Counted from the stretch's first letter, positions 23,423 to 45,040 are shown. The stretch: DNA of 64,000 bases from Candidatus Omnitrophota bacterium (GCA_043805415.1 JAZDHZ010000027.1:2089-66088), one strand, 5' to 3'. Numbers and translations are program-made. Notes: generated by a model from the sequence alone, not told the origin.

Positions 23423-24172
23423 ATGTATAAAGTTGTTTTATTGCGTCATGGAGAAAGTATTTGGAATAAAGAAAATAAGTTCACTGGTTGGACAGATGTT
23501 GACTTATCAGAAAAGGGGATTATTGAAGCCACCCAAGCAGGAAAATTACTCAAAGAACAAGGTTATACTTTTGATATTGCTTATACTTCCGTGCTTAAAA
23601 GAGCAATCAGAACATTGTGGTTAACCTTGGATCAGATGGATTTAATGTGGATACCAGTTGTCCGCAGCTGGAGATTAAATGAACGCCATTATGGCACATT
23701 GCAAGGCCTGAACAAAGCCGAAACAGCGGCTAAATACGGTGACGATCAGGTACTTGTTTGGCGTAGAAGTTATGATATCCCGCCTCCGGCACTGGAAAAA
23801 AAAGACCCCCGCTATCCTGGCAATGACCCGAAATACGCGGATTTAAATGAAAAAGACACGCCTTTAACTGAGTGTTTAAAAGATACAGTTGAACGCTTTC
23901 TGCCCTATTGGCATGAAACCATTGCTCCAGCAATAAAATCCGGGGAAAAAGTGCTTATTGCCGCGCATGGCAATAGCCTGCGCGCTTTGGTAAAATACCT
24001 CGACAAAACTTCCGATGAGGAAATTGTAAATCTTAATATTCCTACTGCCATACCTTTGGTATATGAGCTTGACGCGAATTTAAAACCAATAAAAAGTTAT
24101 TATTTAGGTGACCAGGAAGCAATTAAAAAAGCAATGAATGCCGTCGCTAATCAGGGAAAAGCGAAAAAATAG
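23423..24172 (+). CDS. gpmA: 2,3-bisphosphoglycerate-dependent phosphoglycerate mutase
   Basis: [32 protein letters not shown] (RHG catalytic His). Shine-Dalgarno AAAGGAAG at 23411. The ORF track TTG start at 23408 is less likely. Confidence 0.9.
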
Positions 24173-24226
24173 CGGTTAGCGTTTATATATTCATAACCAA
24201 GCACTATTCGCTAACCGCTGTTTTTT
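24171..24226 (+). terminator. Rho-independent terminator, bidirectional, serving gpmA and the convergent amidase gene
   Basis: Stem AGCGGTTAGCG (24171..24181) pairs with CGCTAACCGCT (24209..24219), followed by GTTTTTT. On the minus strand the hairpin is followed by ATTTTTT. Confidence 0.6.
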
Positions 24227-25648: not shown

Positions 25649-26503
25649 TTATAAATATTCAGACGCAAGATAAGAACTCCGCACATACGGACCGCTTTCA
25701 ATATGCGAAAACCCAAATTCCTCAGCTTTTTGCTTATAAAAATTAAACCTGTCCGGATGAATAAATTCCCTGACTTGATAATGCTGTTTACTGGGAGCTA
25801 AATACTGTCCGATACTGAGAAAATCACAGCCTGTTTTCTTTATATCTTTCAAAACTTCCAATGCTTGCCCTTCTGTTTCTCCCAGTCCTAGCATAATTCC
25901 CGATTTTATATATTTATCAGGAGCAATGTCTTTAGCTGTTTTTAAAACGTTTAATGACCTTTGATAATCAGAACCAATCCTAACCTGGGGATAAAGATCC
26001 GACACTGTTTCAATGTTGTGAGCAAAAATATCACAGCCAGCTTGGATCACTTGTTTAATTGATTCAACCTGTCCCTGAAAATCAGGGACAAGAACTTCAA
26101 CTGTAATATTAGGATCTATGGATTTTACTGCTTTTATATTTTGGACAAACGCTTCTGCTCCCCCATCAGCGAGATCATCGCGAGTTACACTGGTTATTAC
26201 TACATGCTTTAATCCGAGCCTGTTTACGGCTTCTGCCAATCTTTGCGGCTCAGCATGATCAACCATCTGCGGTTTCCCGCTTTTTACTGCGCAAAAGCGG
26301 CAATTACGGGTGCAAACATTTCCCAATATAAGAAAAGTCGCCACTCTTGCCGAAAAGCACTCACTAATATTTGGACAATGAGCTTCTTTACATACAGTAT
26401 TAAGCTCTAATTGTCCAAAAAGCTGATGCAAATCTAAGCACTTAGCTAAATTAACCTTTTTCTTAAGCCAATGCGGTTTTTTTACGGTTTCCATTATATT
26501 CAT
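25649..26503 (-). CDS. lipA: Lipoyl synthase
   Basis: CPNISEC plus radical SAM CTRNCRFC motifs. 284 aa. Confidence 0.9.
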   Translation of the reverse strand: MNIMETVKKPHWLKKKVNLAKCLDLHQLFGQLELNTVCKEAHCPNISECFSARVATFLILGNVCTRNCRFCAVKSGKPQMVDHAEPQRLAEAVNRLGLKHVVITSVTRDDLADGGAEAFVQNIKAVKSIDPNITVEVLVPDFQGQVESIKQVIQAGCDIFAHNIETVSDLYPQVRIGSDYQRSLNVLKTAKDIAPDKYIKSGIMLGLGETEGQALEVLKDIKKTGCDFLSIGQYLAPSKQHYQVREFIHPDRFNFYKQKAEEFGFSHIESGPYVRSSYLASEYL

Positions 26504-26532
26504 TGATTAAATAACCTTATTATATCAAAAGA

Positions 26533-27357
26533 TTAGTCTTCTTGTTTTTTAACTATACTCGCTTTTTTAAAATAATTCCATTGTTTGGTCTTATACTTTT
26601 CTTCATTCAATGTATGCGTTAAATCTTCTTCTGATCTGGTTAAAATTGTTTTTTTCAAGCAAACATCATACGAAGATTTAAACGAATCTATCAATAAAAG
26701 AGATATTTCTTTCAAACTAATCTCTCTTTTAAGTTCTTCTTGCAAACAAGTAACCCGTTGCTCTATGCCTTCTAGGTCCTCTTTAACAAAAGTTTTAATC
26801 TTGGGAAAATCTAATGTCAAAGGGATTGAACCATGCTGAAAAATAATATCCCGCGAGCGTTTTTGCGCGTTTCCCCCGATTTTTTTATCACCAATCATAA
26901 TATCAAATTTCTCGGTTGTGGCAAAACAAAACTCAGAAGGGTCTCCATGTTTATACTTATCAATATCTCCGGCAAAGAACGGTTTCAATCCAAGCTCTCG
27001 ATAGGCATTAAACACAAAGGCTGTTAAAACGCGGAAACTTTTTTTAACTGAATCAGAAACATTTAAGTCTTGCTTGGAACAAACAATGCTATAGGTTATT
27101 TCATTATCATGGAATATTGCTTCACCACCGGTAATCCTCCGGACAAAATCTAGTTTATACACTAGACATTGTGATAGATTTAAAGCACTCGCCGGAACCT
27201 GAGAAGAACCCAAAGAAATAGCCGCTGGCTTCCAGCTATATATCCGCAGGGTCGGCATTCCCCCTTTATATATATACGTCTGCAATATGGATTCATCAAT
27301 AGCCATATTTGTATACGCATCATTTGCAGGGGAAATTATTAAACGCCAATTAATCAT
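26533..27357 (-). CDS. Lipoate-protein ligase / octanoyltransferase family protein (LplA/LipM-like BPL_LPL catalytic domain)
   Basis: GGNAQKRSRDIIFQHGSIPL lysine motif. Preferred ATG at 27357. The ORF track TTG at 27393 is less likely. Confidence 0.7.
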   Translation of the reverse strand: MINWRLIISPANDAYTNMAIDESILQTYIYKGGMPTLRIYSWKPAAISLGSSQVPASALNLSQCLVYKLDFVRRITGGEAIFHDNEITYSIVCSKQDLNVSDSVKKSFRVLTAFVFNAYRELGLKPFFAGDIDKYKHGDPSEFCFATTEKFDIMIGDKKIGGNAQKRSRDIIFQHGSIPLTLDFPKIKTFVKEDLEGIEQRVTCLQEELKREISLKEISLLLIDSFKSSYDVCLKKTILTRSEEDLTHTLNEEKYKTKQWNYFKKASIVKKQED

Positions 27358-27402
27358 ACATTGAAGATTCCAAACTATAGTTGTAAATAACAAATTTATG
27401 TA

Positions 27403-28854
27403 TTAAGCTTGCTGCCATCTAAGTTTTAAGTCTCTTGCGGCTTTAGTTTCATCTAAACGTTTGATTGGCATATTATCCGGAGCATCATGTAATTTTTGCG
27501 CATCATTATCACAAAGTTTAGCTGCCCCTATCAATATCTCGATAAAATTATCCAAAGTCTCTTTTGATTCAGTTTCAGTAGGTTCAATCATAAGTGCTTC
27601 TTTTACAATTAAAGGGAAATATACAGTTGGCGGATGCAGGCCTTGACTGATTAGATATTTAGCAATATCTAATGCGCTCACCCCTTTTTCTTTTTGTCGC
27701 TCAGCTGAAGCCACAAATTCATGCATACATACTCTATCATATGGAATGGAAAAATATTTTCTCAATAAAACCCTACAATAATTCGCGTTTAATACTGCTT
27801 TTTCCGCGACATTTATTAACCCGGATTTACCTAAAAGCATAATATAGGCATAACTTTTTAAAATAACTCCGAAATTTCCGCAAAAAGGAGCGATAAACCC
27901 TAATGATTTTGGCTCATCATAATCCAGGGCATAAGTTCCATCACTTCTCTTTTTAACCCGGGAAATTGGCAGAAAATCTTTTAGTTTCTTGATTACTCCC
28001 ACAGGCCCAGCGCCCGGTCCGCCTCCGCCATGAGGAGTCGCGAAAGTTTTGTGAAGATTTAAATGCACTATATCAAAACCCAGATCCCCTGGCCGTGACT
28101 TCCCCAGGATTGCATTGAGATTTGCGCCGTCATAATATACAAGCGCTCCAACCTCATGCGCCGCGTCACAAATATTTTTTATTTGAGAGTTAAAAACCCC
28201 TAATGTATTCGGACAAGTAAGCATAACTCCGGCCACATCTTCATTCAGCTTGCTTTTAAATACATCAATGTCCATACAACCATTGCTCCCAGTAGGAACA
28301 ACAATTACTTCATAGCCGGCAATTGCCGCGCTCGCGGGATTAGTCCCATGTGAAGAATCCGGAACAATGATGTATTTACGTTTTTGTCCCTGATAACGAT
28401 GATACGCGGCAATGATCATAACTCCGGTAAGCTCGCCATGCGCTCCGGCAAGAGGCTGCATAGTAAAAGCATCCATTCCGGTGATCTCGGAAAGCAAACG
28501 CTCTGTTTTATAAACAACTTCCAAAGAACCTTGCGCCAGCATCCCGCCGCCTCTAAGCTGCGGCATTAGCGGATGCAGATCAAGAAAACCATCCAAGGAC
28601 GCTATTTTTTCCGTGAATTTCGGATTATATTTCATTGTGCATGATCCTAAGGGATAAAAATTAGTATCCACTGAAAAATTCAATCTCGATAAATTAGTAT
28701 AATGCCGCACTACATCCAGTTCTGAAACCTCAGGCAATTCAGCATCTTTATCCCGAAGATATTGTTTGGGAAATTCAAGGTTCTGATTGACCGTGCACAC
28801 CGGAAGCTTCAATCCTTTACGTCCTTTTACACTTTTTTCAAATATTAACTGCAT
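27403..28854 (-). CDS. gcvPB: Glycine dehydrogenase (decarboxylating) subunit 2
   Basis: 483 aa with PLP-lysine region typical of GcvPB. 10-nt overlap with gcvPA. Confidence 0.9.
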   Translation of the reverse strand: MQLIFEKSVKGRKGLKLPVCTVNQNLEFPKQYLRDKDAELPEVSELDVVRHYTNLSRLNFSVDTNFYPLGSCTMKYNPKFTEKIASLDGFLDLHPLMPQLRGGGMLAQGSLEVVYKTERLLSEITGMDAFTMQPLAGAHGELTGVMIIAAYHRYQGQKRKYIIVPDSSHGTNPASAAIAGYEVIVVPTGSNGCMDIDVFKSKLNEDVAGVMLTCPNTLGVFNSQIKNICDAAHEVGALVYYDGANLNAILGKSRPGDLGFDIVHLNLHKTFATPHGGGGPGAGPVGVIKKLKDFLPISRVKKRSDGTYALDYDEPKSLGFIAPFCGNFGVILKSYAYIMLLGKSGLINVAEKAVLNANYCRVLLRKYFSIPYDRVCMHEFVASAERQKEKGVSALDIAKYLISQGLHPPTVYFPLIVKEALMIEPTETESKETLDNFIEILIGAAKLCDNDAQKLHDAPDNMPIKRLDETKAARDLKLRWQQA

Positions 28855-30182
28855 AAAACCGCCTCTAAGCTTTCTGCCAGCTTTTTAATCTCTTCTTTTG
28901 TCCTTTTTTCAGTTACAGTCACCAAAAGATAATTTTCCATGCCCTTATAAAATCGTCCCAGCGGAAATCCACAGGCAAATCCCTTTTCAATCATTTTATT
29001 TACAACTTCTCCGGCATTTTGCGGAAGTAATACTGTAAATTCATTAAACGTCGGTGTAGTTCTTTTCACCTCTACTCCGGGAACTTTATCCAGAACTTCT
29101 TTGGCAAATTCACTATTGCGGTAATTCATCAAGCTTAGCTGTTTTAGACCTTGTTTGCCAATCAAAGAAAGATAGATAACTGCCCGCAAAGCGCAAAGCG
29201 CTTCATTAGAGCAAATATTTGATGTGGCTTTTTCTCTTCTGATATGCTGCTCTCTTGCCTGTAAAGTTAAAACAAAACCCTGCTTATTATCTTTGTCCAC
29301 TGTTTGTCCGACAACTCTTCCGGGAATTTTGCGCACATATTCTTTTTTAACTGCCATAAACCCAAGATAAGGACCGCCAAAAGAAAGCGGGATTCCCAAA
29401 CTCTGGCCTTCTCCGGTAGCAATATCAACACCCATCTCCGCCGGAGTTTTCATTAAACCCAGGGCAATAGGATAAACCGATTGCACCAGCAAAGCTCCTA
29501 AGGAATGGGCTTTTTTAGCAATATCTGAGTAATCATCTATGGCGCCAAAAAAATTAGGATTTTGAATAATCACAGCAGCGGTTTTATCATCAAGATGCTT
29601 ATATATCTGCTCTCTGGAGCTATGTCCATGCACAACATCAGTTTCAATAAATTCAATTGATAAATTGGTTGTATAGCTATATAGCATGCTCCGGTATACC
29701 AAATTAACTCCGCTATCAACGATTATTTTGCGTCTGCCGGTGATCCGCACAGCCATCATCGCGGCTTCATATAAAGCAGTACCGCCATCATATAAAGAAG
29801 CATTAGCCGCGTCCAGACCGGTTAATTCACAGATCGCGGTTTGATATTCAAAAATAGACTGCAGCCAGCCTTGGGAACATTCCGGCTGATAAGGGGTATA
29901 CGCCGTATAAAACTCTGCCCTGCCGCTTAAAGCATCAACTCCCGCGGGAATATAATGATCATAAAAACCCGCGCCTAAAAAACTGATCAGGTTTGTCGCG
30001 TTTTTGTTGGCAAGTTTTTTAAAATGCTCAATAACCTCAAACTCAGATTTACCTTCTGGGATATCAAATGATTGGGCTCGAAGATCCGGAGTTATATCCT
30101 TAAACAAATCATCAATCTTTTTAACCCCAATGATTTTTAACATTTCATTTATTTGCTCTTTTGTGTGCGGAGTATATGGCAT
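28845..30182 (-). CDS. gcvPA: Glycine dehydrogenase (decarboxylating) subunit 1
   Basis: 445 aa, GcvPA family. Stop overlaps the gcvH stop region. Confidence 0.9.
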   Translation of the reverse strand: MPYTPHTKEQINEMLKIIGVKKIDDLFKDITPDLRAQSFDIPEGKSEFEVIEHFKKLANKNATNLISFLGAGFYDHYIPAGVDALSGRAEFYTAYTPYQPECSQGWLQSIFEYQTAICELTGLDAANASLYDGGTALYEAAMMAVRITGRRKIIVDSGVNLVYRSMLYSYTTNLSIEFIETDVVHGHSSREQIYKHLDDKTAAVIIQNPNFFGAIDDYSDIAKKAHSLGALLVQSVYPIALGLMKTPAEMGVDIATGEGQSLGIPLSFGGPYLGFMAVKKEYVRKIPGRVVGQTVDKDNKQGFVLTLQAREQHIRREKATSNICSNEALCALRAVIYLSLIGKQGLKQLSLMNYRNSEFAKEVLDKVPGVEVKRTTPTFNEFTVLLPQNAGEVVNKMIEKGFACGFPLGRFYKGMENYLLVTVTEKRTKEEIKKLAESLEAVLCS

Positions 30183-30568
30183 TACAGGCTTTCCTTTAAA
30201 TAGTTTTTGTACGCATCAGCATCCATCAAATTTTCTATCTGAGATTCCTCAGTAAGTTCAATCGCAAGCAACCATCCTTGCTCATAAGGAGATTGATTTA
30301 CCAGCTCTGGATTTTCCACCACTTTATTATTTACCGCAGTAACTTTTCCGGATAAAGGCGCATAAATATCTGAGGCAGCCTTGACTGATTCTATTGTGGC
30401 GATTTGTTTAAACTGCTCGCATTGAGTCTGTTGAGCCGGCAATTCCACAAAAGTAATATCACCCAGCTCATGCTGGGCATGATCACTGATTCCCATCTTT
30501 GCCTGATTACCATCGATTTTTACCCATTCATGTTCTTTTGTGTAAAATAATCCTTCTGGTACATTCAT
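30182..30568 (-). CDS. gcvH: Glycine cleavage system H protein (lipoyl carrier)
   Basis: MNVPEGLFYTKEHEWVK... with lipoyl-lysine motif ESVKAASD. ATG at 30568 preceded by AAGGAG. The ORF track N-terminal extension overlaps gcvT and was trimmed. Confidence 0.85.
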   Translation of the reverse strand: MNVPEGLFYTKEHEWVKIDGNQAKMGISDHAQHELGDITFVELPAQQTQCEQFKQIATIESVKAASDIYAPLSGKVTAVNNKVVENPELVNQSPYEQGWLLAIELTEESQIENLMDADAYKNYLKESL

Positions 30569-30584
30569 AATCTGCTCCTTTTCA

Positions 30585-31691
30585 TTATATCCGCAAACTG
30601 CCTTTTTTATAAAAAGGCCTTTTAACCACTTTGGCATTTATTTTAACATTTTCATGCTGCAGGATAATTTCTGTGCCTATGTCACTAAATTGCGTTTCAA
30701 TATAACCCATGCCTATGCCGCAGCCCAGACTGGGCGAATATGATCCGCTGGTCACCACTCCTACTTTTCGATTATTAGAGAATATTTCATAATCATGCCG
30801 CGGCGCGCGCCTTGAATCAGTTTCAAAACAACATAATTTTTTTACCAAGCCCTGCTCCTGTTTTTTTCCCAAAGCCTTTTTACCAGAAAAATCTTTGTTC
30901 ATATCCACAAAACCAGCTAATCCTGCTTCCAGCGGAGTTGTGGTTGAATTAATATCTTGACCATATAGGGGATAACATACTTCTAATCTTAAGGTATCAC
31001 GGGCACCCAGGCCTGCTGGCTTTACGGTTTTATTTTTCAGCAGCAAATTCCAAAGTGCGATGACTTTATCATTACTTATATACAATTCAAAACCCAGTTC
31101 ACCAGTATAGCCAGTACGGCTAATAATAATATTTTCTCCTAAAACTTTAAAATAATCAAAGGTGTAATAATCTAGCTTTAAAATCCCTTCACCTGCTATT
31201 TCAACAAGCACATCCCGGCTAAGCGGACCTTGTAAATCAAGCTTTGCCAATGTATTGGAAATATCTTCAATTTTCACATTATCCTTAGCTAAGTTTTTCT
31301 CCAGATGTTCAAAATCCGCTGATGAAGTTGCCGCGTTTACAACCAGCATCCACTTATCCTGCTCTATCCGATAGATAATAACATCATCAATAATTCCCGC
31401 ATTATCATTAAGCATAAATCCGTATCTGCAGGTTTTTAAAGGCATATTAACCAAATTTTGGGTTAATATTTTATCTAATTTGCTGGGCAAAGCATCAGCT
31501 TTGATCAAGAATTCACCCATATGACAAATATCAAACACAGAGCAATTATTTCGTGTCCACTGATGCTCACTTATTATGCCTTCATATTGAATGGGCATAA
31601 GCCAGCCGCCAAAAGGCGCGCATTTTGCGCCCAATTTATTATGCTGCTCAAATAAGGGAGTTTTTTTTGTTTTCATATCCTTTAATGCCAA
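30585..31691 (-). CDS. gcvT: Glycine cleavage system aminomethyltransferase T protein
   Basis: 368 aa, GcvT fold signatures. The true start may be the internal Met (MKTKKTPLFEQH) at 31673. Confidence 0.85.
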   Translation of the reverse strand: MALKDMKTKKTPLFEQHNKLGAKCAPFGGWLMPIQYEGIISEHQWTRNNCSVFDICHMGEFLIKADALPSKLDKILTQNLVNMPLKTCRYGFMLNDNAGIIDDVIIYRIEQDKWMLVVNAATSSADFEHLEKNLAKDNVKIEDISNTLAKLDLQGPLSRDVLVEIAGEGILKLDYYTFDYFKVLGENIIISRTGYTGELGFELYISNDKVIALWNLLLKNKTVKPAGLGARDTLRLEVCYPLYGQDINSTTTPLEAGLAGFVDMNKDFSGKKALGKKQEQGLVKKLCCFETDSRRAPRHDYEIFSNNRKVGVVTSGSYSPSLGCGIGMGYIETQFSDIGTEIILQHENVKINAKVVKRPFYKKGSLRI

Positions 31692-31780
31692 AATAGTGAC
31701 AGGTTAGGGATTTAAGATACCATAAACCCAATTTTATTTCAAGTGTTTTCCTAAATTCCCAATAAATCTAGCATAAACTG

Positions 31781-33085
31781 CTATTTTCTTGTTTTAAAAC
31801 TATGTCCAAATCCCTGCGAAATGGTTCTGCCTAAAGATATTGTCATTGCCGCTGCCCCGCCGTGGCAATCTCCAGGCTGCTCTTTAATACATATCTTATC
31901 CGGGTATATCCGGTAATGTTCTCGATATTGCTGGGGAGTTAAATTAGGCATAATCACATTTGCCCCGCAGCATAATACCTTTTGCCTTCCCTGCGGATCG
32001 ATTGAGCCGACAGCTGTTGTTGCCGGAATATGCGTATTTCTGGTTAGAATCCGCACCAAGGCAATAACTTTGCGCATCATCTCTATTGTGCCTTTTTCCG
32101 CCGCGTTCAATGGGGTTTCCGGATTAGGAATAAACGGGCCGAGCCCAATCATATCCAGATCAAGCTCAAGCATTAAAAGTATATCCTCTGCAAGAATCTC
32201 CTTGGTTTGCCCAGGCAATCCAACCATACAGCCAGATCCCACCTGAAAACCAAGTTGTTTTAAATCTTTTAAACATTGAATTCTGGTTTGATAATCAGAA
32301 TCTGGTTTTAATTTCCTAAATAACTGTTCATTTGAGGTCTCAAAACGCAGCAAATAGCGGTCAGCACCTGCCTGCCGCAGTTTTTTATACTCAGAAAAAG
32401 ACCGCTCTCCTAAGGATAGAGTAATCGCACAACTCGTCTGCTGTTTAATTTCTTTAATTATCTGGCAAAGCTGCTCAATACTATAAGCATTATCTTCGCC
32501 TGACTGTAAAACAATTGTTTGGTAATTAAGCGCAACCGCTGATTTGGTAATATCTACTATTTCATTGCTCGACAATCTATATCTATTAATCTCTTTATTA
32601 TCTTTTCTTAATCCGCAATAAAGACAATTCCTTCCGCAATAATTAGAAAACTCAATTAAGCCTCTTAAATGGATATCATCTCCGCAGTAAAGCTTGCGCA
32701 GAGCATCAGCAAAATTAACCAGAATCTGTTCTGGATGGGTTTTAAGAAAATAGATTATATTCTGTTTTAAACTCCGGCGTGTTTTGGGCCAAATAAGCTG
32801 ATATAATGATTCTACGTCTTTCTGCTGCTTATGTGTTAACTTGCTATAGCCGTATATAATAATGCCGTGCGCAGCATCAAGTTCTATGCGCTGCGCATCA
32901 AACATACGCTGATTACTAATAGCTTGGCCAGAAACAAATTCTTGCCTATTCCCTTTAATATTAATAAGATGCACATTTACCGGATATATCTGCTCAACGC
33001 ATTTAGTTAAAACCCCTAACTCGCTAAGAGCTATATCCTGATCTATTTTTTTCGCTGGATTAGAAGTAAAGATCTCGTTCGCCAT
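31781..33085 (-). CDS. hydE: [FeFe]-hydrogenase maturase HydE (radical SAM), with an extra ~85-aa N-terminal extension
   Basis: LRGLIEFSNYCGRNCLYCGLRKDN radical SAM motif in biotin-synthase-like context. 434 aa versus the usual ~350. Confidence 0.8.
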   Translation of the reverse strand: MANEIFTSNPAKKIDQDIALSELGVLTKCVEQIYPVNVHLINIKGNRQEFVSGQAISNQRMFDAQRIELDAAHGIIIYGYSKLTHKQQKDVESLYQLIWPKTRRSLKQNIIYFLKTHPEQILVNFADALRKLYCGDDIHLRGLIEFSNYCGRNCLYCGLRKDNKEINRYRLSSNEIVDITKSAVALNYQTIVLQSGEDNAYSIEQLCQIIKEIKQQTSCAITLSLGERSFSEYKKLRQAGADRYLLRFETSNEQLFRKLKPDSDYQTRIQCLKDLKQLGFQVGSGCMVGLPGQTKEILAEDILLMLELDLDMIGLGPFIPNPETPLNAAEKGTIEMMRKVIALVRILTRNTHIPATTAVGSIDPQGRQKVLCCGANVIMPNLTPQQYREHYRIYPDKICIKEQPGDCHGGAAAMTISLGRTISQGFGHSFKTRK

Positions 33086-34568
33086 TTTTCACCCGGTTAT
33101 AATATTCCATAAACTGCTCAAATACTTTGGGCAGTGTTTTCTTTATTTCCCCAATCTCTTTTTCAATTATCTCTTCGGATTTAAGCTTTGTCTGTTCCGA
33201 AGCAAAATCATCAACCCATTCGCGAAACGTTAAAACCGCGTTAAGCTTGCAGAACTTCCCTTCTTTTCCGCTGCGCAGCATATCCATAATACACTCGCCG
33301 GTACGGCCGCAGCGGTAGCCGGCTGTACAAAAAGAAGTAATATATCCCATCTCAATATATTCATTAATCAGTTCTTCCAGACTGCGCGTGTCGCCTAAAA
33401 TAAACTGCTGTCTTTGACCTTGCTGCTGTTTAGTCTCATCGCCGTATGCGCCGATAGCTATTTTGGTCGAAGCATCGGTTTGGGTAATGCCCAAAGCAAT
33501 TGCCTGTTTTCGGATATCGGCATTTTCCCTGGCAGTAATAATCAGTCCGGTGTGCGGTACTGCCAATCTTAAAACAGTTATAATTTTTTTAAAATCAGCA
33601 TCAGAAACTTTATATTTTAAATTCTGCGTAAGCGGAGTATTATCCGCTGGCTCAATCCGCGGAAAAGAAATTGTATGCGCTCCGATGCCAAAGTTTTTTT
33701 CCAGCTCCTGATTATGCGTGATTAATCCCATTACCTCAAACTTCCAATCATATAATCCGAATAATACCCCTAATCCCACATCATCAATTCCCGCTTCCAT
33801 GGCGCGGTGCATAACATAAAGCCGCCAGTTATAATTGCTTTTAAGCGTATTTTCCGGATGTACTTTTCTATAAGTATCCTGATGATAGGTTTCCTGAAAA
33901 ACCTGGTAAGTGCCAATTCCCGTGTCATGCAGACGCCTTAATTCCTCGATTGAAAGCGGCGCGGCATTCACATTTACTCTTCTTATCTGACCAATACCTT
34001 TTGCGGTTTTTTCTTTTATCCCGTATATGGTTTTAACTGACTCAACCATATAATCAATACCCGTGCTTGGATGCTCGCCATAAACAACAACCAAACGTTT
34101 GTGCCCGATTTTGCCGCAAAGAACTCGAACTTCTTTTTCAATCTCCGCTAAGGAAAGTATTTTTCTTTGGGTTGCATGATTATCTTCTCTAAACGCACAG
34201 TAAAGACAATTATTTACACAAGCATTGCCTAGATACAAAGGCGCAAAAGTAACAATCCGATTATCATAAACTTTCTTTTTAACTTTTAAAGCCGTCTCCC
34301 GCATAAGCTGCCACAACTGAGGATCGCTTACATTTAAAAGACAAGCTGCTTCTTCGGCACTAAGCGTTTTAATCTGCAAAGATTTTTCCAGAATATTTAA
34401 TACTAATTGCTTATCCGGATTTTTTGCTTGGCTAAGAATGGCATCGATATTGTCCTGATCAATGAAGTTTTTAGTATCAGCTAAATATTTATCTATCTGT
34501 TCGTTTTTTATCCGCTGTTTAATCCAGTTTTCCAGTTCATTGGTTTTTAGTTTCATTAGATCCTCCAC
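33060..34568 (-). CDS. hydG: [FeFe]-hydrogenase maturase HydG (radical SAM tyrosine lyase)
   Basis: CVNNCLYCAF N-terminal cluster plus C-terminal auxiliary Cys cluster CTAGYRCGRTGEC. 502 aa. Confidence 0.85.
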   Translation of the reverse strand: MEDLMKLKTNELENWIKQRIKNEQIDKYLADTKNFIDQDNIDAILSQAKNPDKQLVLNILEKSLQIKTLSAEEAACLLNVSDPQLWQLMRETALKVKKKVYDNRIVTFAPLYLGNACVNNCLYCAFREDNHATQRKILSLAEIEKEVRVLCGKIGHKRLVVVYGEHPSTGIDYMVESVKTIYGIKEKTAKGIGQIRRVNVNAAPLSIEELRRLHDTGIGTYQVFQETYHQDTYRKVHPENTLKSNYNWRLYVMHRAMEAGIDDVGLGVLFGLYDWKFEVMGLITHNQELEKNFGIGAHTISFPRIEPADNTPLTQNLKYKVSDADFKKIITVLRLAVPHTGLIITARENADIRKQAIALGITQTDASTKIAIGAYGDETKQQQGQRQQFILGDTRSLEELINEYIEMGYITSFCTAGYRCGRTGECIMDMLRSGKEGKFCKLNAVLTFREWVDDFASEQTKLKSEEIIEKEIGEIKKTLPKVFEQFMEYYNRVKNGERDLYF

Positions 34569-35817
34569 TCAATAATAATTTTTCGGCTTTTTTATATGCC
34601 TCAAGCGCTGCGGGAAACGGGCTTAGTACCCTTTCAATCACACCCTGTAATTTCGCGATACATACTCCATAATTGCTAATCGCTACTCCTGCCTGTTCTG
34701 CTTGCTGTATCCGGCTAAGCATGGCGCGGCGATTAATCATGCAGCCGCCGCAATGAATAATCAGTTTATATTCCGCTAAATTATCCGGATAATCACTGCC
34801 GCGGCAAGTATCGAATTTAATTGCTGCCCCGGTATACTGCCGAAACCAGCGGGGGATTTTAACTCTAGCGATATCATCTTCAATCGGATGATGCGAACAG
34901 CTCTCAGCAATCAAAACTTTATCCTTAGATTTAAGGGTATCAATTACAGCGGCTGCTTGCGCTGCCTTAATCAGATCACCTTTAAATCTTGAAAATAAAA
35001 TTGAAAAAGTCGTACATTTAACATCCGCCGGAGTATCGGCAACCATCTTTAACACCACTTGAGAATCACAGATCACAATATCCGGTTTTCTCACTATATT
35101 TTCAATAACATGCGCGTATTCTCTTTCTTTAACCACAATGCTTATCGCGTCATTATCCAAAACTTCTCTGATTGTCTGAACCTGAGGGAGAATTAAGCGG
35201 CCTTTGGGTGCCTGCAGATCAATCGGCACTATCAGCACTGCGCAGCCTGCTGCCGGAATAAGATCACTGATAAGATCCGGCGGCTTTAAAAAATCCTCAG
35301 GACAAATATCAATCAGCAGTTTTTTAAACCGATTAAGCGTTTGCTCCTGGTTATCCGAATCAATGCTTGAGCAAATCAATATCTGTTTAGAAAAACCTTT
35401 AATCTGCTCAAGATATCCCTCTTCGGGATTATTCATATCAGCTTTATTAATAACCACAATCAGCGGGATCTTTTCCTGTTCTGCTCTTTGGGCAACCAAG
35501 ATTTCATAATCCTGCCAGGTTCCGGCTTCAACAATAAGCACAACCACATCCGCTTTTTTAAACACCGCGTATGTTTTTTTAAGCCGCATTTCCGAAAGCG
35601 CTGAGGCATCATCAATTCCCGCTGTATCTAAAAATACCACCGGACCTAAAGGCAATAGCTCCATTGTTTTTTCCACTACATCAGTTGTTGTGCCGGCAAT
35701 CGGAGAAGTTATTGCCACATCCTGCAAGCTGATATAATTAAGAAACGTGGATTTTCCCACATTCATCCTGCCGAACAGGCCGATATGCAGGCGTAGTGAT
35801 TTAGGCGCCTTATTCAT
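34537..35817 (-). CDS. hydF: [FeFe]-hydrogenase maturation GTPase HydF
   Basis: GRMNVGKSTFLN P-loop. C-terminal CxH...HCxxC FeS-binding region (ESCSHHP...HCGGC). ATG at 35817 sits 5 nt after the aspA-like stop. Confidence 0.85.
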   Translation of the reverse strand: MNKAPKSLRLHIGLFGRMNVGKSTFLNYISLQDVAITSPIAGTTTDVVEKTMELLPLGPVVFLDTAGIDDASALSEMRLKKTYAVFKKADVVVLIVEAGTWQDYEILVAQRAEQEKIPLIVVINKADMNNPEEGYLEQIKGFSKQILICSSIDSDNQEQTLNRFKKLLIDICPEDFLKPPDLISDLIPAAGCAVLIVPIDLQAPKGRLILPQVQTIREVLDNDAISIVVKEREYAHVIENIVRKPDIVICDSQVVLKMVADTPADVKCTTFSILFSRFKGDLIKAAQAAAVIDTLKSKDKVLIAESCSHHPIEDDIARVKIPRWFRQYTGAAIKFDTCRGSDYPDNLAEYKLIIHCGGCMINRRAMLSRIQQAEQAGVAISNYGVCIAKLQGVIERVLSPFPAALEAYKKAEKLLLSGGSNETKNQ

Positions 35818-37198
35818 CTTGTTTATACCCCAATGATACGATATTAGCCGGATCAAGCACTTTGTTTACTAAATCTTTACCCAGTTTCTGGCTTAAAAAA
35901 TCGTTTAAGCTTATCTTTTTGTTTTCCGGGATTTGAGAAAATTCCTGAACTAATTCCGTGGCTTTTTCATATCCCAGATAAGGCAAAAAAGCCGTGATTA
36001 AACCCGGACTTTTATTTAAATTTTCTTGGCATTTTGCTGGTTTAGCCTTTATCAGCAGCACATGTTTTGTCAGTATTTTATTGGCATTTAACAATACATC
36101 CAATGATTCAAGCATCGCGTAAGCTAAAAGCGGCATAAATTCATTTATCTGCAAAGTGCTTCGGCTTACTGCCTCGGTTATCAGAAAATCATTCGCCAGG
36201 ACTTTTATCCCTGCCTGGATTATCGCTTCCATAATTACCGGATTGATTTTTCCCGGCATAATTGATGAGCCAGCCTGCACTGCAGGCAATTCTATTTCTT
36301 CAAATAAATGCAGTAACCGCAGATCTTGGCAGATTTTAATCAGATTCTGAGCATGGGCTTTAATAATTCCAGAGGTTTCCCCAAAAGCATCACTATTGGC
36401 CGTACTATCAATCAGATTCTCAGCCCGGCAGATCCCCAAATTGCTGAGCTGTCTCAGTTTTTCAATTACTAAAAAAATATAATCTCTAGGAGCAGTAAGT
36501 CCGGTCCCCACCGCTGTGCCACCGATATTAACCGTGCGGATACGTTCCTGAGCTTTAAACATTCTCCACCTATCCCGTCCAAAAGCCTCGGCAAAGCCGG
36601 AAAATTCCAAACCCAAGGTAATCGGCACAGCATCCTGCAGCTCTGTCCTGGCAATTTTTACAATATGGCTAAATTCTTTTTCTTTTGCCTGAAAAGCGCC
36701 TTGGAGTTTAGCGATCTCCGCGCTTAATAAATTTAACTTGTAAATCACCGCGATTTTTAAAGCCGTGGGATAAACATCATTTGTTGACTGATGTTTATTA
36801 ACATCTTCAATCGGATGGATCAGAGTATAATCTCCTTTATCTCCCCCCATTTTCTCAATCGCGATATTGGCAATGACTTCATTAATATTCATATTTGTGG
36901 AAGTGCCTGCGCCGCCTTGCAAAGCATCAACAATAAACTGATCATCATGTAAACCAGCATTAATCGCATCACATGCTTGACAGATTGAATCAGCCTTGGC
37001 CTGTTCCAGATAACCCAACTCAGCATTGGCCAGGGCACAGGCTTTTTTAACCAACCCTAAAGCGTGAATCAGCGAAATATTTATTCTACTTCCCGTTATC
37101 GGGAAATTCTCCCAAGCTCTTTGTGTATGAATGCCCCAGTAGGCGTCTTGGCTAACTTCTTTTTGCCCTAAAAGGTCTGATTCCATCCGGTTTTCCAT
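35810..37198 (-). CDS. Aspartate ammonia-lyase / class II fumarase family enzyme (hyd-cluster-associated AspA-like)
   Basis: GSSIMPGKINPV signature loop. 462 aa. Confidence 0.8.
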   Translation of the reverse strand: MENRMESDLLGQKEVSQDAYWGIHTQRAWENFPITGSRINISLIHALGLVKKACALANAELGYLEQAKADSICQACDAINAGLHDDQFIVDALQGGAGTSTNMNINEVIANIAIEKMGGDKGDYTLIHPIEDVNKHQSTNDVYPTALKIAVIYKLNLLSAEIAKLQGAFQAKEKEFSHIVKIARTELQDAVPITLGLEFSGFAEAFGRDRWRMFKAQERIRTVNIGGTAVGTGLTAPRDYIFLVIEKLRQLSNLGICRAENLIDSTANSDAFGETSGIIKAHAQNLIKICQDLRLLHLFEEIELPAVQAGSSIMPGKINPVIMEAIIQAGIKVLANDFLITEAVSRSTLQINEFMPLLAYAMLESLDVLLNANKILTKHVLLIKAKPAKCQENLNKSPGLITAFLPYLGYEKATELVQEFSQIPENKKISLNDFLSQKLGKDLVNKVLDPANIVSLGYKQDE

Positions 37199-37206
37199 AA
37201 TTACCT

Positions 37207-37470
37207 CTATTTATTTTTCGCGTTTTGCTTACTTAATGCTGATTTAACGGAAACTCCTTCAATATTGCCCAGTTTACCGGTCATTGTGCCCAGGTCGTCA
37301 GTGGTAATATCCACTGTCAGGGTAATAACACTGCAGTTTCTTTCTTTATACGGCAAACCTACCCGGGCAACAATATTATCCCCATATTCCGAAAGGATCT
37401 GATTAACAGCCTGTGCCTGTTTTTTTCGATCTTCAAGGATAATCCCAACAAACCCTAATCTTTTTTCCAT
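37207..37470 (-). CDS. Small ACT/NikR-C-like protein of the TM1266 'iron-only hydrogenase system regulator' family
   Basis: MEKRLGFVGIILEDRKKQAQAVNQILSEYGDNIVARVGLPY...GKLGNIEGVSVK. ATG at 37470 preceded by GGAGG. Confidence 0.65.
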   Translation of the reverse strand: MEKRLGFVGIILEDRKKQAQAVNQILSEYGDNIVARVGLPYKERNCSVITLTVDITTDDLGTMTGKLGNIEGVSVKSALSKQNAKNK

Positions 37471-37660
37471 AATCCTCCACCTCTGTAGGTAGGGACAGGG
37501 CAAGCCCTGTCCATTTATCTTAATGTCGATGATTGAAAGTCAATAACGTATAGCGTTTAGAAATTAGTAATTCATAACTATTTTTTCTAATCGCTAAACA
37601 CTGTATTCTGTCTTACCGTGCGTAAAATTTATCTATCATCTTTTTCTCATAGCATCTTTA

Positions 37661-37701
37661 AAAATAAAAAACCCAACCTTAGTTAATCCTATAAGGTTGG
37701 G
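37661..37701 (-). terminator. Rho-independent terminator downstream of hldD
   Basis: 10-bp stem CCCAACCTTA (37672..37681) / TAAGGTTGGG (37692..37701), followed on the minus strand by TTTTTTATTTT. Confidence 0.55.
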
Positions 37702-37833
37702 ATATGCTTAAATAAAAATCACTTTCCCTCCCCTTGGTTTTAGACCAAAATCAGTCCTCTCCGCAGGATATATACTAATTCACAAAACAGCAGAATCTAT
37801 GTTCTTAAATCTTTAATCTAAGTTTAGAATTTA

Positions 37834-38799
37834 TTATAAATAAGCGTTTTTGTCAAGATATTTGACATAATCCGCGATTGTATTTTCTAAACAATTAAAC
37901 TTAAAATCACAGCCGGCTTTTTTAAGCTTATCCATATTCGCGCAAGTATAATACTGATACTTGGGCTGCAGATAATCCGGCATATCAATATAGTTTATCA
38001 CTGGGGTTTTGCCCAGGGCTTTAAACATGGCATTGGCCAGTTCATTCCAAGTCTGCGCTTTTCCAGTGCCAAGATTAAAAATGCCGGTTGCCTGGGGATT
38101 ATTAAACATCCAGAACATAATTTCCACCGCGTCTTTAATGTATATAAAATCCCTTTGCTGCTGTCCGTGCTTATAATCTTTATGATATGATTTAAACAAA
38201 CTGATACAGCCTTTATCTCTTACTTCCTTAAACTTTTTACATACAACACTGCTCATATCATCTTTATGATATTCATTCGGCCCAAAAACATTAAAGAATT
38301 TAATTGCTGTTGCTTTTTTATCAAATCCATTACGCTGCATCCAAAGATCAAATAAATGTTTTGAATAACCGTACATATTCAGCGGTTTTAACAGATTAAG
38401 ATCTTGGCTATCGTCATAACCGCGAGCCCCATCGCCATATGTAGCAGCTGAAGACGCGTAAATAAACGAAGCTTTGTGTAAAAAAGCCCATTGCGCCAGT
38501 ATTTTAGAATATTCGTAATTGTTCTGGATAAAATAAGCCCCGTCCTTGCAGGTTGTTGAGCTGCAGGCTCCCATGTGAATTACTTTTGTCGGCACAGGCA
38601 GCTGGTCTTCAGCAATTAACCTTAAAAATTCGTCTTTTTGAATATAATCAATAAATCTTTTGCCAACAAGATTCTTCCATTTCTCCGACTCATCAAGTTC
38701 ATCAACAACAATAATATCATCAATTCCTTGGCTATTTAATTTCCACAGAAAACCGCTGCCGATAAATCCTGCTCCGCCAGTTAAAATAATCATCTTCAA
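37834..38799 (-). CDS. hldD: ADP-L-glycero-D-manno-heptose 6-epimerase
   Basis: MKMIILTGGAGFIGS ... ASSAATYG ... NVFGPNE ... FNLGTG, near-collinear with E. coli RfaD. Confidence 0.85.
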   Translation of the reverse strand: MKMIILTGGAGFIGSGFLWKLNSQGIDDIIVVDELDESEKWKNLVGKRFIDYIQKDEFLRLIAEDQLPVPTKVIHMGACSSTTCKDGAYFIQNNYEYSKILAQWAFLHKASFIYASSAATYGDGARGYDDSQDLNLLKPLNMYGYSKHLFDLWMQRNGFDKKATAIKFFNVFGPNEYHKDDMSSVVCKKFKEVRDKGCISLFKSYHKDYKHGQQQRDFIYIKDAVEIMFWMFNNPQATGIFNLGTGKAQTWNELANAMFKALGKTPVINYIDMPDYLQPKYQYYTCANMDKLKKAGCDFKFNCLENTIADYVKYLDKNAYL

Positions 38800-38882
38800 T
38801 CCCCTTTAATTTATTGCTTATTACTCAGCTAAACTTATTATAGCAAAAAATCATTTTTAAAACAGACTTTTTACAAATAGAT

Positions 38883-39125
38883 TTATTCACAATCAAAAGA
38901 AACTAATCTTAACTCGCGCATATCTGAGTCTTCGAAATGCAGCTTTGCTGTTTGTAAAGGCGTATTTTTAGACTGTTCTTTGAAAAAATATGTTAATATT
39001 TCGGGATTTATCTCAGTAAACTGGCCCATTTTCAGATAAACATTGGTGATTTTTTTAGTATTATTCTTCTCTGCCAGCTTAAGTAAATCCTGAAAAAGAT
39101 TTTTAATCACATGCATTTCATGCAT
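38883..39125 (-). CDS. HypA-like hydrogenase nickel-insertion protein, N-terminal domain only (no zinc-finger half)
   Basis: MHEMHVIKNLFQDLLKLAEKNNTKKITNVYLKMGQFTEINPEILTYFF...AKLHFED parallels the HypA MHE...V.LK.G.F motif pattern. Ends after 80 aa with no CxxC...CxxC. Confidence 0.55.
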   Translation of the reverse strand: MHEMHVIKNLFQDLLKLAEKNNTKKITNVYLKMGQFTEINPEILTYFFKEQSKNTPLQTAKLHFEDSDMRELRLVSFDCE

Positions 39126-39147
39126 AAAAGCCTCCTGCTGATCTGTT

Positions 39148-39630
39148 TTATTTTAGCATATTTCTTCGAATAATTTCTACTATTTCATCTGCTGTTTTTT
39201 TAATTTCCCCTGACAGCCCTTCACCAAAACAAACTGATTTTGGCTGAATTCCGATAAAAAACACTCTAGTTTTTATGCTTTGGCAGATAATCCCGGTGAT
39301 AACATTCAAAGGAATCGCGTGAGTACTCAAAGTTGTTTGCGGAATTTTATCTTCGGGAATTATCCTGACCTCGCCGGGGTTACCGCCCCAATCAGCCGCG
39401 TCGATAATTAATATCTTTTTCGGTCCAAGGCTAATAACTTCTTCAATAATATTTTCCGGAGTATACCCGGCATTAATTACCTTTAACCCGATTATTTTTT
39501 CAAGTTCGCCAGCAATATAAGGCCCTACTCCATCATCAAATCTAAAAGAATTCCCGACAGCAACAATAAGGTCACTGTCGGGATTAAGCTTAAGCAACTC
39601 AATAATATTACCGGTCAATGTATTTGACAT
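39148..39630 (-). CDS. [NiFe] hydrogenase maturation endopeptidase (HycI/HoxW/FrhD family)
   Basis: LIVAVGNSFRFDDGVGPYIAGEL motif. Start is taken as the internal Met at 39630. The ORF track start is 39666. Confidence 0.75.
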   Translation of the reverse strand: MSNTLTGNIIELLKLNPDSDLIVAVGNSFRFDDGVGPYIAGELEKIIGLKVINAGYTPENIIEEVISLGPKKILIIDAADWGGNPGEVRIIPEDKIPQTTLSTHAIPLNVITGIICQSIKTRVFFIGIQPKSVCFGEGLSGEIKKTADEIVEIIRRNMLK

Positions 39631-40933: not shown

Positions 40934-41681
40934 CAGTTTTCAACTCCCCTAACTCACGCGGTTTGTTGTACATGTTAATTTTATTTTCAATCCAATCCAG
41001 AGAAATATTGTATTTTTCTAAAATATCTTTCTGCCCTTTTTCCGCCGGATTACTCACAATTCCCCGACAGCCATAACAGATATTGCCGTTATTTATACAC
41101 CAGGAATTACATCCCGCGCGGGTAATCGGCCCCATACAGGAGATTCCTTTATCATACATACACTCATTTTCATTAAGCTTACATTCCACGCAAACCGCGT
41201 TATCCGGAACATTATAAGCAATTCCCATTAGCGCTGCTTTTAAAACCTTAACAAATTCCGGAATATAAACCGGACAGCCGGGAACAAAATAATCTACCGG
41301 AACTACCTGATGCACTGCTCGGGTGGGCATAGTATCAAAATATTTCGCGTCTTGTTTATACACATATTCCCGAATGTCTTTTAAGTCAAAATTGTTTTTC
41401 ATTCCATTGATCCCGCCGATAGCAGCGCAAGACCCGTAAGCAATCAATACTTTCGCGGTTTTTCTAATCTTTTTAATTCTTTCCACTCCATGCGGGGTAG
41501 TAATACTGCCTTCAACAATCGCCACATCATAGCTATTTGATTTTTCCGACATTACTTCTCGGAATTCCACAACATCAATAAGATCTAAAACATCCAATAA
41601 TGTCTCGCCCATATTCGCGATTTGCAGCTGACAGCCTTCACAACAGGTAAAATCAAAAAACGCAACTTTAACTTTTTTCAT
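40926..41681 (-). CDS. [NiFe] hydrogenase small (delta) subunit
   Basis: CEGC proximal-cluster motif near the N-terminus (FDFTCCEGCQLQ). Further Cys clusters. 251 aa. Confidence 0.85.
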   Translation of the reverse strand: MKKVKVAFFDFTCCEGCQLQIANMGETLLDVLDLIDVVEFREVMSEKSNSYDVAIVEGSITTPHGVERIKKIRKTAKVLIAYGSCAAIGGINGMKNNFDLKDIREYVYKQDAKYFDTMPTRAVHQVVPVDYFVPGCPVYIPEFVKVLKAALMGIAYNVPDNAVCVECKLNENECMYDKGISCMGPITRAGCNSWCINNGNICYGCRGIVSNPAEKGQKDILEKYNISLDWIENKINMYNKPRELGELKTDE

Positions 41682-41683
41682 AA

Positions 41684-45032: not shown

Positions 45033-45040
45033 TACACCTT

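Follow-up and report, generated by a model that had tools for sequence, protein, structure and literature searches.

Does a run of eleven minus-strand genes, in which the maturases of [FeFe]-hydrogenase are followed by genes for glycine cleavage and lipoylation, constitute a single unit dedicated to the azadithiolate bridge of the H-cluster, or do two ordinary operons lie side by side? The run is located in a 64-kb stretch of DNA from a Candidatus Omnitrophota bacterium (all of which was analysed, and which is referred to as the window). Aminomethyl-lipoyl-H-protein and ammonium are the source of DTMA in vitro, AspA occurs in hyd operons, and Hmet, T-protein, ammonium, and AspA support in vitro maturation (PMC11736057, PMC12501116). 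The initial annotation, which cited this biochemistry correctly, regarded the locus as strong genomic-context support for a dedicated azadithiolate unit rather than housekeeping glycine catabolism. Since the in vivo relevance of the H-protein for the bridge is still argued from in vitro data, a natural linkage of hydEFG with gcvH/gcvT, if it recurred, would be a valuable and independent line of evidence; the present locus does not provide that.

Gene content of the run

Gene identities were assigned with NCBIfam/TIGRFAM and Pfam models (bit scores are given against the cut-off of the model), and all eleven of the names originally proposed were borne out by these scores. Two further genes follow lipA.

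37207..37470, minus strand: TM1266-family putative regulator of the iron-only hydrogenase system, 87 aa (TIGR03959, 103 vs 61; PF21699)
35810..37198, minus strand: AspA-like lyase of the aspartate ammonia-lyase/fumarase superfamily (NF008909, 566 vs 510; PF00206)
34537..35817, minus strand: hydF, H-cluster maturation GTPase and scaffold (TIGR03918, 512 vs 326)
33060..34556, minus strand: hydG, radical SAM maturase (TIGR03955, 469 vs 312)
31781..33085, minus strand: hydE, radical SAM maturase (TIGR03956, 360 vs 255, residues 113-420)
30585..31676, minus strand: gcvT, aminomethyltransferase (T-protein; NF001567, 387 vs 300)
30182..30568, minus strand: gcvH, lipoyl carrier H-protein, 128 aa (NF002270, 164 vs 117)
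28845..30182, minus strand: gcvPA, glycine dehydrogenase subunit 1 (NF001696, 615 vs 364)
27403..28854, minus strand: gcvPB, glycine dehydrogenase subunit 2 (NF003346, 706 vs 441)
26533..27393, minus strand: LplA/LipM-family lipoyl/octanoyl transferase, catalytic domain only, start uncertain (PF21948, 127 bits; PF03099)
25649..26503, minus strand: lipA, lipoyl synthase (TIGR00510, 358 vs 310)
25008-25637, minus strand: orf209, no family in the Pfam search
24225-25004, minus strand: LysM-Amidase_2 cell-wall hydrolase (family search)

The start of the TM1266-like gene (37470) was chosen by comparison with 87-aa relatives, and those of hydF (35817), hydG (34556), gcvT (31676, ATG), and gcvH (30568) were refined.

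HydF possessed the dimer and tetramer domains (PF18128 and PF18133) together with the P-loop GRMNVGKST, DTAG, NKAD, and CSHH...HCGGC, and was therefore assigned to the HydF family. The radical SAM motif of HydE, CGRNCLYC (CX3CX2C), was invariant in the HydE alignment, confirming its assignment, and the protein carried an N-terminal extension of ~105 aa, to which the Pfam search assigned no family. In HydG, CVNNCLYC was present, and the C-terminal motif was a variant, CTAGYRCGRTGEC...(13)...FC, with the second Cys at +6 and not at +3 of the auxiliary-cluster motif CX2CX22C; this shift was common to all of the Omnitrophota-type HydGs sampled. HydE and GcvT were 100% identical to MFH1062240.1 (from a Candidatus Omnitrophota MAG at NCBI) and MFH1062239.1, respectively. 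The AspA-like protein was below the cut-off of the aspA equivalog TIGR00839 (462 vs 681), but contained the loop GSSIMPGKINP (family pattern, GSSxMPxKxN), and its gene was kept beside TM1266/hydF in loci L005, L006, L013, L016, and L021. As judged from its sequence, the product is a lyase of the aspartate ammonia-lyase/fumarase superfamily, putative as to its substrate.

These five genes are the same set as in the Thermotoga-type hyd clusters with TM1266 and an aspartate ammonia-lyase homologue (PMC11736057). Their order was also kept in other Omnitrophota-type loci, and all three maturases passed equivalog models. On the other hand, hydA was neither adjacent nor found elsewhere in the 64-kb window, the module was located within a NiFe-hydrogenase island (see below), and the HydE extension and the shifted Cys motif of HydG were additional differences from the Thermotoga type. 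No known RNA was detected upstream of TM1266 (Rfam, gathering scores or E <= 5).

Operons of gcvT-gcvH-gcvPA-gcvPB with a split P-protein are known from Firmicutes and Thermotogae. The present genes resembled them in their order, in overlapping or nearly so, in all four products passing NCBIfam models, and in the intact lipoyl-lysine motif of GcvH (ESVKAASD). They differed in that lplA/lipM and lipA were joined on, in the lack of a nearby L-protein and of an upstream glycine riboswitch or other Rfam element, and in being located, in this clade, directly downstream of hydE. The glycine cleavage system had been called complete; the P- (two subunits), H-, and T-proteins were all above the cut-offs, whereas the L-protein (dihydrolipoyl dehydrogenase) was absent from the cluster and from the whole 64 kb. 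SHMT, formate-THF ligase, FolD, and glycine reductase were also absent from the window, which additionally contained a GltD/NfnB-like oxidoreductase pair and glutamate dehydrogenase.

Both lipoylation enzymes had been regarded as unambiguous, and this was true for LipA, in which CX4CX5C, CX3CX2C, and RSSY were present in addition to the score above the cut-off. In contrast, the lplA-like gene passed Pfam catalytic-domain models only: its product was far under every NCBIfam LplA cut-off (111 vs 480 for NF053750 and 102 vs 280 for TIGR00545), consisted of the catalytic domain only (ligase activity of LplA calls for an accessory C-terminal domain or an LplB partner), and had LplA from T. acidophilum as its best solved relative (2ARS, E = 1e-18). 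It is probably best assigned to the LplA/LipM/LipL family of transferases.

Boundaries of the run and the hydE-gcvT spacer

37672..37701, minus strand: intrinsic terminator after rfaD, hairpin CCCAACCTTA...TAAGGTTGGG and T-run, -13.9 kcal/mol
31677..31780, minus strand: hydE-gcvT spacer, 104 nt to the gcvT ATG at 31676
31742-31714, minus strand: predicted gcv promoter-like element, -35 CTTGAAA, 17 nt, extended -10 TGgTATCTT
24171..24219, minus strand: intrinsic terminator closing the run, hairpin AGCGGTTAGCG...CGCTAACCGCT and T-run, -17.4 kcal/mol

The tight, co-directional packing noted at the outset is real, but did not stop at lipA: the run extended, with gaps of 11 and then 3 nt, through orf209 and the LysM amidase (syntenic in L001, L009, L092, and L093) to the terminator at 24219-24171. 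It was also interrupted by one gap of 104 nt between hydE and gcvT, the largest in the run, versus <=45 nt at the other junctions. Co-directionality was uninformative because nearly every gene in the window was on the minus strand (only three real genes were found on the plus strand of the entire 64 kb), and tight packing was weak as evidence because the terminator-bounded stretch included an unrelated amidase in a strand-biased window. The locus thus illustrates that, in genomes with a strand bias, operons are poorly identified by tight co-directional packing.

Strong terminators were present on both sides of the whole 13.5-kb stretch. The one after rfaD delimits the hyd transcription unit on its 5' side; it was kept in L001, L009, and L010, and in the last of these an A-U pair was replaced by G-C in a compensatory manner. 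Within the hydE-gcvT spacer of the window, neither canonical nor permissive searches detected a terminator; none was detected between these genes in L010, L011, or L092 either, while the spacer of L001 contained just one weak two-hairpin candidate. Read-through at the junction is therefore possible and, given the strong flanking terminators, a long hyd-gcv transcript is plausible.

A strong terminator or an independent promoter between hydE and gcvT, with uncorrelated expression, had been named in the initial annotation as an argument against a single unit. There was no terminator, yet the gap contained the promoter-like element, followed by a conserved leader (CTAACC..CACTATTTTGG), the two together spanning 31742-31677. 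Element and leader were kept in seven loci, including L093, in which no hyd genes are located at this site; the five closest loci had identical hexamers, and those of L092 and L093 were almost identical. Variation was found in the sequence that separates the hexamers and in that upstream of them, and the total length of the spacer ranged from ~95 to 480 nt across loci. L001 and L009 tolerated an insert of ~300 nt between hydE and gcvT, of which neither the window nor the other loci contained a copy. Rfam searches of the junction, at gathering scores or E <= 5, revealed neither a glycine riboswitch nor any other known RNA. Promoter activity for gcv is predicted at 31742-31714, and the conservation in L093 suggests that this footprint predates the hyd genes at the site.

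Distribution of the hyd and gcv modules among relatives

Adjacency of hyd and gcv was found in the window and five other loci, which formed one clade with shared flanking synteny. GcvPB of the window shared 90-94% identity with its counterparts in the closest loci; the values for L092 and the hyd-less L093 were 85% and 80%, respectively. The adjacency was kept at identities as low as 58% (HydE) and 66% (GcvT), and the linked gcv copy diverged in step with the flanking genes.

Outside this clade, gcv genes were present at none of the 83 other HydE loci. In the 80 of metagenomic origin, gcvT/H/PA/PB/lplA were all without a match at E <= 1e-3; 53 of these had a flank of >=5 kb on one side and, together with L005 and L006, the metagenome loci corresponded to 35 clusters at 70% HydE identity. 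The survey mainly covered Omnitrophota-like sequences of 45-60% identity, not all phyla. A scan of a genome collection with a single HydE query yielded one close relative and three distant or non-specific radical SAM matches, and in the HydE and GcvT match lists only one further pair shared a contig (106 kb, L094), with hydE >10 kb from gcvT. Among the loci surveyed, co-occurrence of hyd neighbourhoods with gcv was not found beyond one syntenic clade, and since all carriers belong to it, they count as a single evolutionary event.

Each module was also found without the other. The hyd module followed a hydA operon in L005-L007, and was located upstream of a NiFe operon, ~1.7 kb away, in L013. 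The six-gene module gcvT-H-PA-PB-lplA-lipA recurred in five other Omnitrophota contexts. L093, without hyd genes, had the order NiFe-hycI-hypA-TPR-gcv...lipA-orf209-LysM-gpmA, with the same downstream neighbours as in the window. The order in L096 was Rce1...YqeY-TPR-gcv, and its eight upstream genes were collinear with 43726-51416 of the window (47-72% amino acid identity). L094/L095 and L097 presented the module in unrelated contexts; in L094, L096, and L097 it had no hydrogenase neighbours. The linked gcv copy was accordingly orthologous, by position, to the stand-alone operons of L093 and L096, and is probably not a paralogous copy dedicated to hyd, at variance with the claim that it is not a housekeeping set. 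Judging from the gene orders of L093, L096, L094, and L097, the gcv module probably occupies its ancestral site as the ancestral operon of the lineage.

Origin of the adjacency and its relation to H-cluster maturation

In the window, an island of ~12 kb, comprising the NiFe operon, hycI, hypA, rfaD, and the hyd module, was located between yqeY and gcvT.

37834..43554, minus strand: four-subunit group-3-type NiFe hydrogenase, hycI, short hypA, and rfaD (family assignments)

This island was absent between yqeY and gcvT in L096, despite the common eight-gene upstream backbone. From the directly observed gene identities, synteny patterns, conserved promoter-like footprint, and terminator positions, we infer, with a probability of approximately 0.72, that the region consists of two standard operons placed head to tail by one rearrangement, and is not a dedicated pathway unit. 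The first operon would be TM1266-aspA-hydF-hydG-hydE, a five-gene H-cluster maturation module that begins after the terminator at 37701-37672. The second would be gcvT-gcvH-gcvPA-gcvPB-lplA/lipM-lipA, with its own promoter and leader (31742-31677), continuing into orf209 and the amidase and ending at 24219-24171. Within one sub-lineage of Omnitrophota, the island may have been inserted stepwise, with the NiFe hydrogenase, hycI, and hypA probably arriving first, and rfaD and the hyd module later, replacing a TPR gene. The adjacency is then most likely a by-product of the landing site of the island, and the gcv genes would be the ancestral general-purpose set of the lineage, with a presumed housekeeping role, rather than a hyd-dedicated copy. 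Transcripts from the hyd promoter may run into gcv, and the housekeeping H-protein may also act as an aminomethyl donor to HydF, as in vitro.

The alternative raised at the outset is that the eleven genes are one co-regulated unit in which GcvT/GcvH/GcvP, the lipoylation enzymes, and AspA form a dedicated supply line to HydF, with the linkage under selection. The published biochemistry, with its in vitro support for Hmet, T-protein, ammonium, and AspA, provides a direct reason to co-express the H-protein, T-protein, lipoylation enzymes, and ammonia-lyase with HydF, and the tight order, the lack of a terminator at the hydE-gcvT junction, and the persistence of the arrangement in six loci, to 58% HydE identity, agree with it. 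HydE, HydF, HydG, the H- and T-proteins, and an AspA-type lyase, all of which are components of the defined system used for in vitro maturation, were encoded within 7.3 kb. Furthermore, gcv families have gone uncounted: the neighbourhood analysis in JBC 2024 tabulated hyd genes and aspA/ilvA/sdaA only, and we found no published hyd neighbourhood analysis that counted them. Nevertheless, we consider a dedicated unit unlikely. The gcv promoter and leader appear older than the hyd genes at the site, stand-alone modules at the same position of the backbone are orthologues of the gcv module, the adjacency was seen in 0/83 other HydE loci and stems from a single event, and the ~300-nt insert was tolerated in L001 and L009. 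The gene content also mismatched a minimal supply line, because the in vitro system uses SHMT and dispenses with the P-protein, whereas both P-protein subunits (and an unrelated amidase) were present in the run and SHMT was missing from the window; the adjacency is, moreover, lineage-restricted. Hence, this locus lends the H-protein pathway weak genomic support, albeit more than none since read-through is possible, and the stronger support originally claimed is countered by the conserved promoter-like element and the restriction to one clade.

It is also rather improbable that transcription of the hyd operon continues into the gcv-lipoylation operon such that induction of H-cluster synthesis also raises the levels of lipoyl-H-protein, T-protein, and P-protein. 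If it did, this would be the first natural genomic linkage to back an in vivo role in azadithiolate synthesis for aminomethyl-lipoyl-H-protein, which is still debated in vitro; the group of organisms for read-through tests is that with HydE MFH1062240.1 and GcvT MFH1062239.1.

A coupling of H2-derived reductant to glycine cleavage or synthesis (flux of the reductive-glycine type), in which the partner of gcv would be the hydrogenases and not DTMA synthesis, is considerably less probable still. NiFe hydrogenase-hycI-hypA were already located upstream of TPR-gcv in L093, where hyd genes were absent, and the GltD/NfnB-like pair and glutamate dehydrogenase in the window are compatible with such a flux. 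However, in L093 that block is set apart from gcv by the TPR gene and by a separate promoter, the gcv modules of L094, L096, and L097 had no hydrogenase neighbours, and the window lacked formate-THF ligase, FolD, glycine reductase, SHMT, and the L-protein.

A chimeric join at hydE-gcvT is a negligible prospect and was rejected: although the source is a MAG, and two divergent copies of the region in GCA_018817585.1 (L001 and L009) indicate that binning problems do occur, composition was uniform across the junction, which recurred in five other independently assembled contigs (six in total, from NCBI, JGI, and Logan) with differing spacer lengths.

Gene content of the run

Eleven ORFs were found on the minus strand at 25649-37503: a hyd module (TM1266-aspA-hydF-hydG-hydE) followed by a gcv module (gcvT-gcvH-gcvPA-gcvPB-lplA-lipA). 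The initial annotation had called these genes correctly, as confirmed by profile searches and by signature motifs read in the translations: radical SAM cysteines in HydE, HydG, and LipA; GTPase motifs and CxH...HCxxC in HydF; the lipoyl site ESVKAASD in GcvH; and the loop GSSIMPGKINP in the AspA-like protein.

Profile matches of genes in the run (bit score; cut-off in brackets)
TM1266-family putative regulator, minus strand, TIGR03959: 103 (61)
AspA-like lyase, minus strand, NF008909 (aspartate ammonia-lyase subfamily), passed: 566 (510)
HydF, minus strand: 512 (326)
HydG, minus strand: 469 (312)
HydE, minus strand: 360 (255)
GcvT, minus strand: 387 (300)
GcvH, minus strand: 164 (117)
GcvPA, minus strand: 615 (364)
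GcvPB, minus strand: 706 (441)
LipA, minus strand: 358 (310)

In the same profile searches, the AspA-like lyase fell below the aspA equivalog TIGR00839 (462 vs 681), and the "lplA-like" product, consisting of the LplA/LipB catalytic domain alone (PF21948), was far under all NCBIfam LplA cut-offs. The closest solved relative of the latter was Thermoplasma LplA of the catalytic-subunit type (2ARS); its activity may be that of a ligase, an octanoyltransferase, or an amidotransferase. Window HydE and GcvT were 100% matches to MFH1062240.1 and MFH1062239.1 at NCBI, respectively (Candidatus Omnitrophota MAG contig, 137,655 nt).

The tight run extended beyond lipA: orf209 came after a gap of 11 nt, and a cell-wall hydrolase of the LysM-amidase type after another of 3 nt. 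The hydE-gcvT gap, 104 nt long up to the gcvT start codon (ATG, 31676), was the largest in the run, every other being 45 nt or less. Co-directionality carries no weight because nearly all window genes are on the minus strand, with just three real genes on the plus strand. The glycine cleavage system had been described as complete; this was not borne out, the L-protein being found neither in the cluster nor in the 64-kb window. SHMT and an [FeFe]-hydrogenase structural gene were also not found in the 64-kb window.

HydE carried an N-terminal extension of ~105 amino acid residues (32771-33085, minus strand) ahead of the TIGR03956 match, overlapping the hydG stop by 26 nt and without a Pfam family match; it was alignable to ~50% identity in relatives (loci L005-L007; proteins P0002-P0020, 416-451 residues), most Omnitrophota HydE proteins have ~330 residues. 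At the C-terminus of HydG (33150-33250, minus strand), the auxiliary-cluster motif was CT(A/S)GYRCGRTGxC...(13)...FC, in which the second cysteine is at +6 instead of +3 and an extra cysteine is often at +12. This variant was clade-wide (also in loci L001, L005-L009, L011-L013, L016-L017, L020-L021, L023, L025, and L028), and the remaining HydG loci sampled had the canonical CTACYRxGRTG...C. The orf209 gene (25008-25637, minus strand), without a Pfam or NCBIfam family match, directly followed lipA in L001, L009, L092, and L093 (71-80% identity) and was absent from L010 and L011.

Loci with one or both modules

The hyd-gcv junction was found in five further contigs: L001 and L009 (GCA_018817585.1), L010 (Logan SRR21677147), L011 (JGI 3300069939), and L092 (JGI 3300040801). 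They shared the flanks of the window (rfaD and the NiFe hydrogenase upstream; orf209, amidase, and gpmA downstream), and their identity to it was graded: GcvPB was 85% identical in L092 and 90-94% identical in the other four. These loci form one clade, and the adjacency counts as one evolutionary event. An assembly artefact at the junction was thereby also excluded.

GCA_018817585.1 contained two diverged copies of the whole NiFe-hyd-gcv region (L001, JAHITE010000097.1; L009, JAHITE010000001.1) with different hydE-gcvT spacers. This suggests that the bin mixes two related populations; a >19-kb duplication is less likely. L009 and L010 also had a gene for a 113-residue protein of the carboxymuconolactone-decarboxylase family between rfaD and the terminator, where the window has ~130 nt of non-coding DNA (37702-37833); its presence therefore varies within the clade.

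The next relative after these loci was L093 (GcvPB 80% identical), in which the downstream backbone was as in the window and the hyd module was absent: NiFe large subunit-hycI-hypA-TPR-gcvT-H-PA-PB-lplA-lipA-orf209-LysM-gpmA. In L096 (GcvT 63% identical), the order was Rce1-DUF3108-Exo/endo-phosphatase-M48-PFK-thioesterase-rhomboid-YqeY-TPR-gcvT...lipA, and window 43726-51416 was collinear with the first eight genes (47-72% identity). The window lacks a counterpart of the L096 TPR gene, which shares 41% identity with its homologue in L093. L094/L095 and L097 had this six-gene gcv-lipoylation module in other contexts again, after fusA or after carB/asnB-like genes. An island of ~12 kb (31781-43554) separates yqeY from gcvT in the window; it contains the genes of a NiFe hydrogenase with four subunits, along with hycI, a short hypA, rfaD, and the hyd module. 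L093, which has the NiFe block but not the hyd module, resembles an intermediate stage.

The HypA-like ORF (38883-39125, minus strand; 80 residues) covered profile positions 1-68 of 116, a short form also kept in L001, L009, and L093; its neighbours were hycI and the group-3-type (sulfhydrogenase-like) hydrogenase genes (39608-43554). A GltD/NfnB-like protein (Fer4_20 and Pyr_redox_2) and a DHODB-type Fe-S subunit (3243-5484, minus strand) adjoined glutamate dehydrogenase (5584-6921) in the window; in L097 the same trio preceded gcvT by ~5 kb.

The recurrent partners of the hyd module were hydrogenase genes (a hydA or NiFe operon), not gcv. In L005-L007, TM1266-aspA-hydF-hydG-hydE came after a Rex-NuoE-NuoF-HydA operon and was followed by a response regulator or gltBD; in L013, the module was upstream of a NiFe operon, ~1.7 kb away. 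A profile scan of metagenome contigs gave 80 further HydE loci (45-60% identity, mostly Omnitrophota-like), which together with L005 and L006 formed 35 clusters at 70% HydE identity. Matches to gcvT, gcvH, gcvPA, gcvPB, or lplA were found in 0/80 of these loci, even at E <= 1e-3, with flanks of at least 5 kb on one side in 53 and on both sides in 27; among the HydE loci compared, adjacency was limited to the one clade.

Transcription signals

Promoter and terminator assignments are predictions; terminators were sought by a permissive hairpin-plus-T-run search of the minus strand, in which two strong intergenic candidates were detected.

Predicted signals
37701-37672, minus strand: predicted terminator between rfaD and TM1266 (-13.9 kcal/mol)
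31742-31714, minus strand: predicted sigma-70-type site in the hydE-gcvT gap (CTTGAAA, 17 nt, TGgTATCTT)
24219-24171, minus strand: predicted terminator after the amidase gene (-17.4 kcal/mol)

The rfaD-TM1266 terminator was conserved among relatives; in L010 it showed a compensatory change, A-U to G-C. No terminator-like structure was detected by the scan in the hydE-gcvT gap, and therefore read-through is possible. On the other hand, an independent promoter with uncorrelated expression had been named as evidence against a single unit, and a conserved promoter-like element was present in this gap. In an alignment of seven loci upstream of gcvT, both hexamers, their 17-nt spacing, and the leader CTAACC..ACTATTTTGG were conserved, the bases between the hexamers were variable, and sequences upstream of the -35 were unalignable (total spacer ~95 to 480 nt). 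Since the element also occurs in the hyd-less L093, downstream of the TPR gene, it is part of gcv and older at this site than the hyd genes. Neither the junction nor the region upstream of TM1266 matched a glycine riboswitch or any other Rfam family.

Immediately 5' of the ribosome-binding site of TM1266 was a hairpin rich in GC (GGACAGGGC-TTGC-CCTGTCC; 37493-37512, minus strand), and L001 and L009 had a different GC-rich palindrome at this position; the hairpin may serve the hyd operon as a 5' structure with a regulatory or stabilising function. Between hydE and gcvT, L001 (~11440-11690) and L009 (~11230-11470) shared an insert of ~300 nt, highly similar in the two and absent from the window, L010, L011, and L092. 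The insert had no Rfam match and no further copy in the window or the other loci compared, contained a possible 24-codon basic ORF, and might be a small element, either mobile or structured.

Relation to H-cluster maturation

The biochemical premise of the initial annotation, that H-protein and ammonium participate in maturation, was accurately cited: defined maturation can do without cell lysate when aminomethyl-lipoyl-H-protein (Hmet) is made by the T-protein together with SHMT, serine, and ammonium, and the ammonium can come from AspA or SdaA (PMC11736057, PMC12501116). The in vivo role of Hmet is still debated. A published analysis of hyd neighbourhoods counted only hyd genes and aspA/ilvA/sdaA, omitting the gcv families, and the only two papers that a full-text search found to name hyd and gcv genes together both dealt with other matters.

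We consider that two standard operons, hyd and then gcv, probably stand side by side. The gcv operon would be the ancestral general-purpose copy of the lineage, at its ancestral site and with its own predicted promoter, and the hyd module would have arrived as part of the hydrogenase island. The gene content misfits a minimal supply line: it includes both subunits of the P-protein and lacks SHMT. Among the elements of the earlier reading, the gene calls, the rationale from biochemistry, and the possibility of read-through stood, while "dedicated", "single unit", and "strong support" did not; the locus gives no support for a dedicated unit. Read-through from hyd into gcv could give incidental co-expression, and moonlighting of the housekeeping H-protein in the synthesis of DTMA (the azadithiolate bridge of the H-cluster) is compatible with all observations. 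As contextual support for the H-protein pathway the locus is weak, coming from a single event. Both modules are ordinary members of known operon kinds, and their juxtaposition is previously unreported and lineage-restricted.
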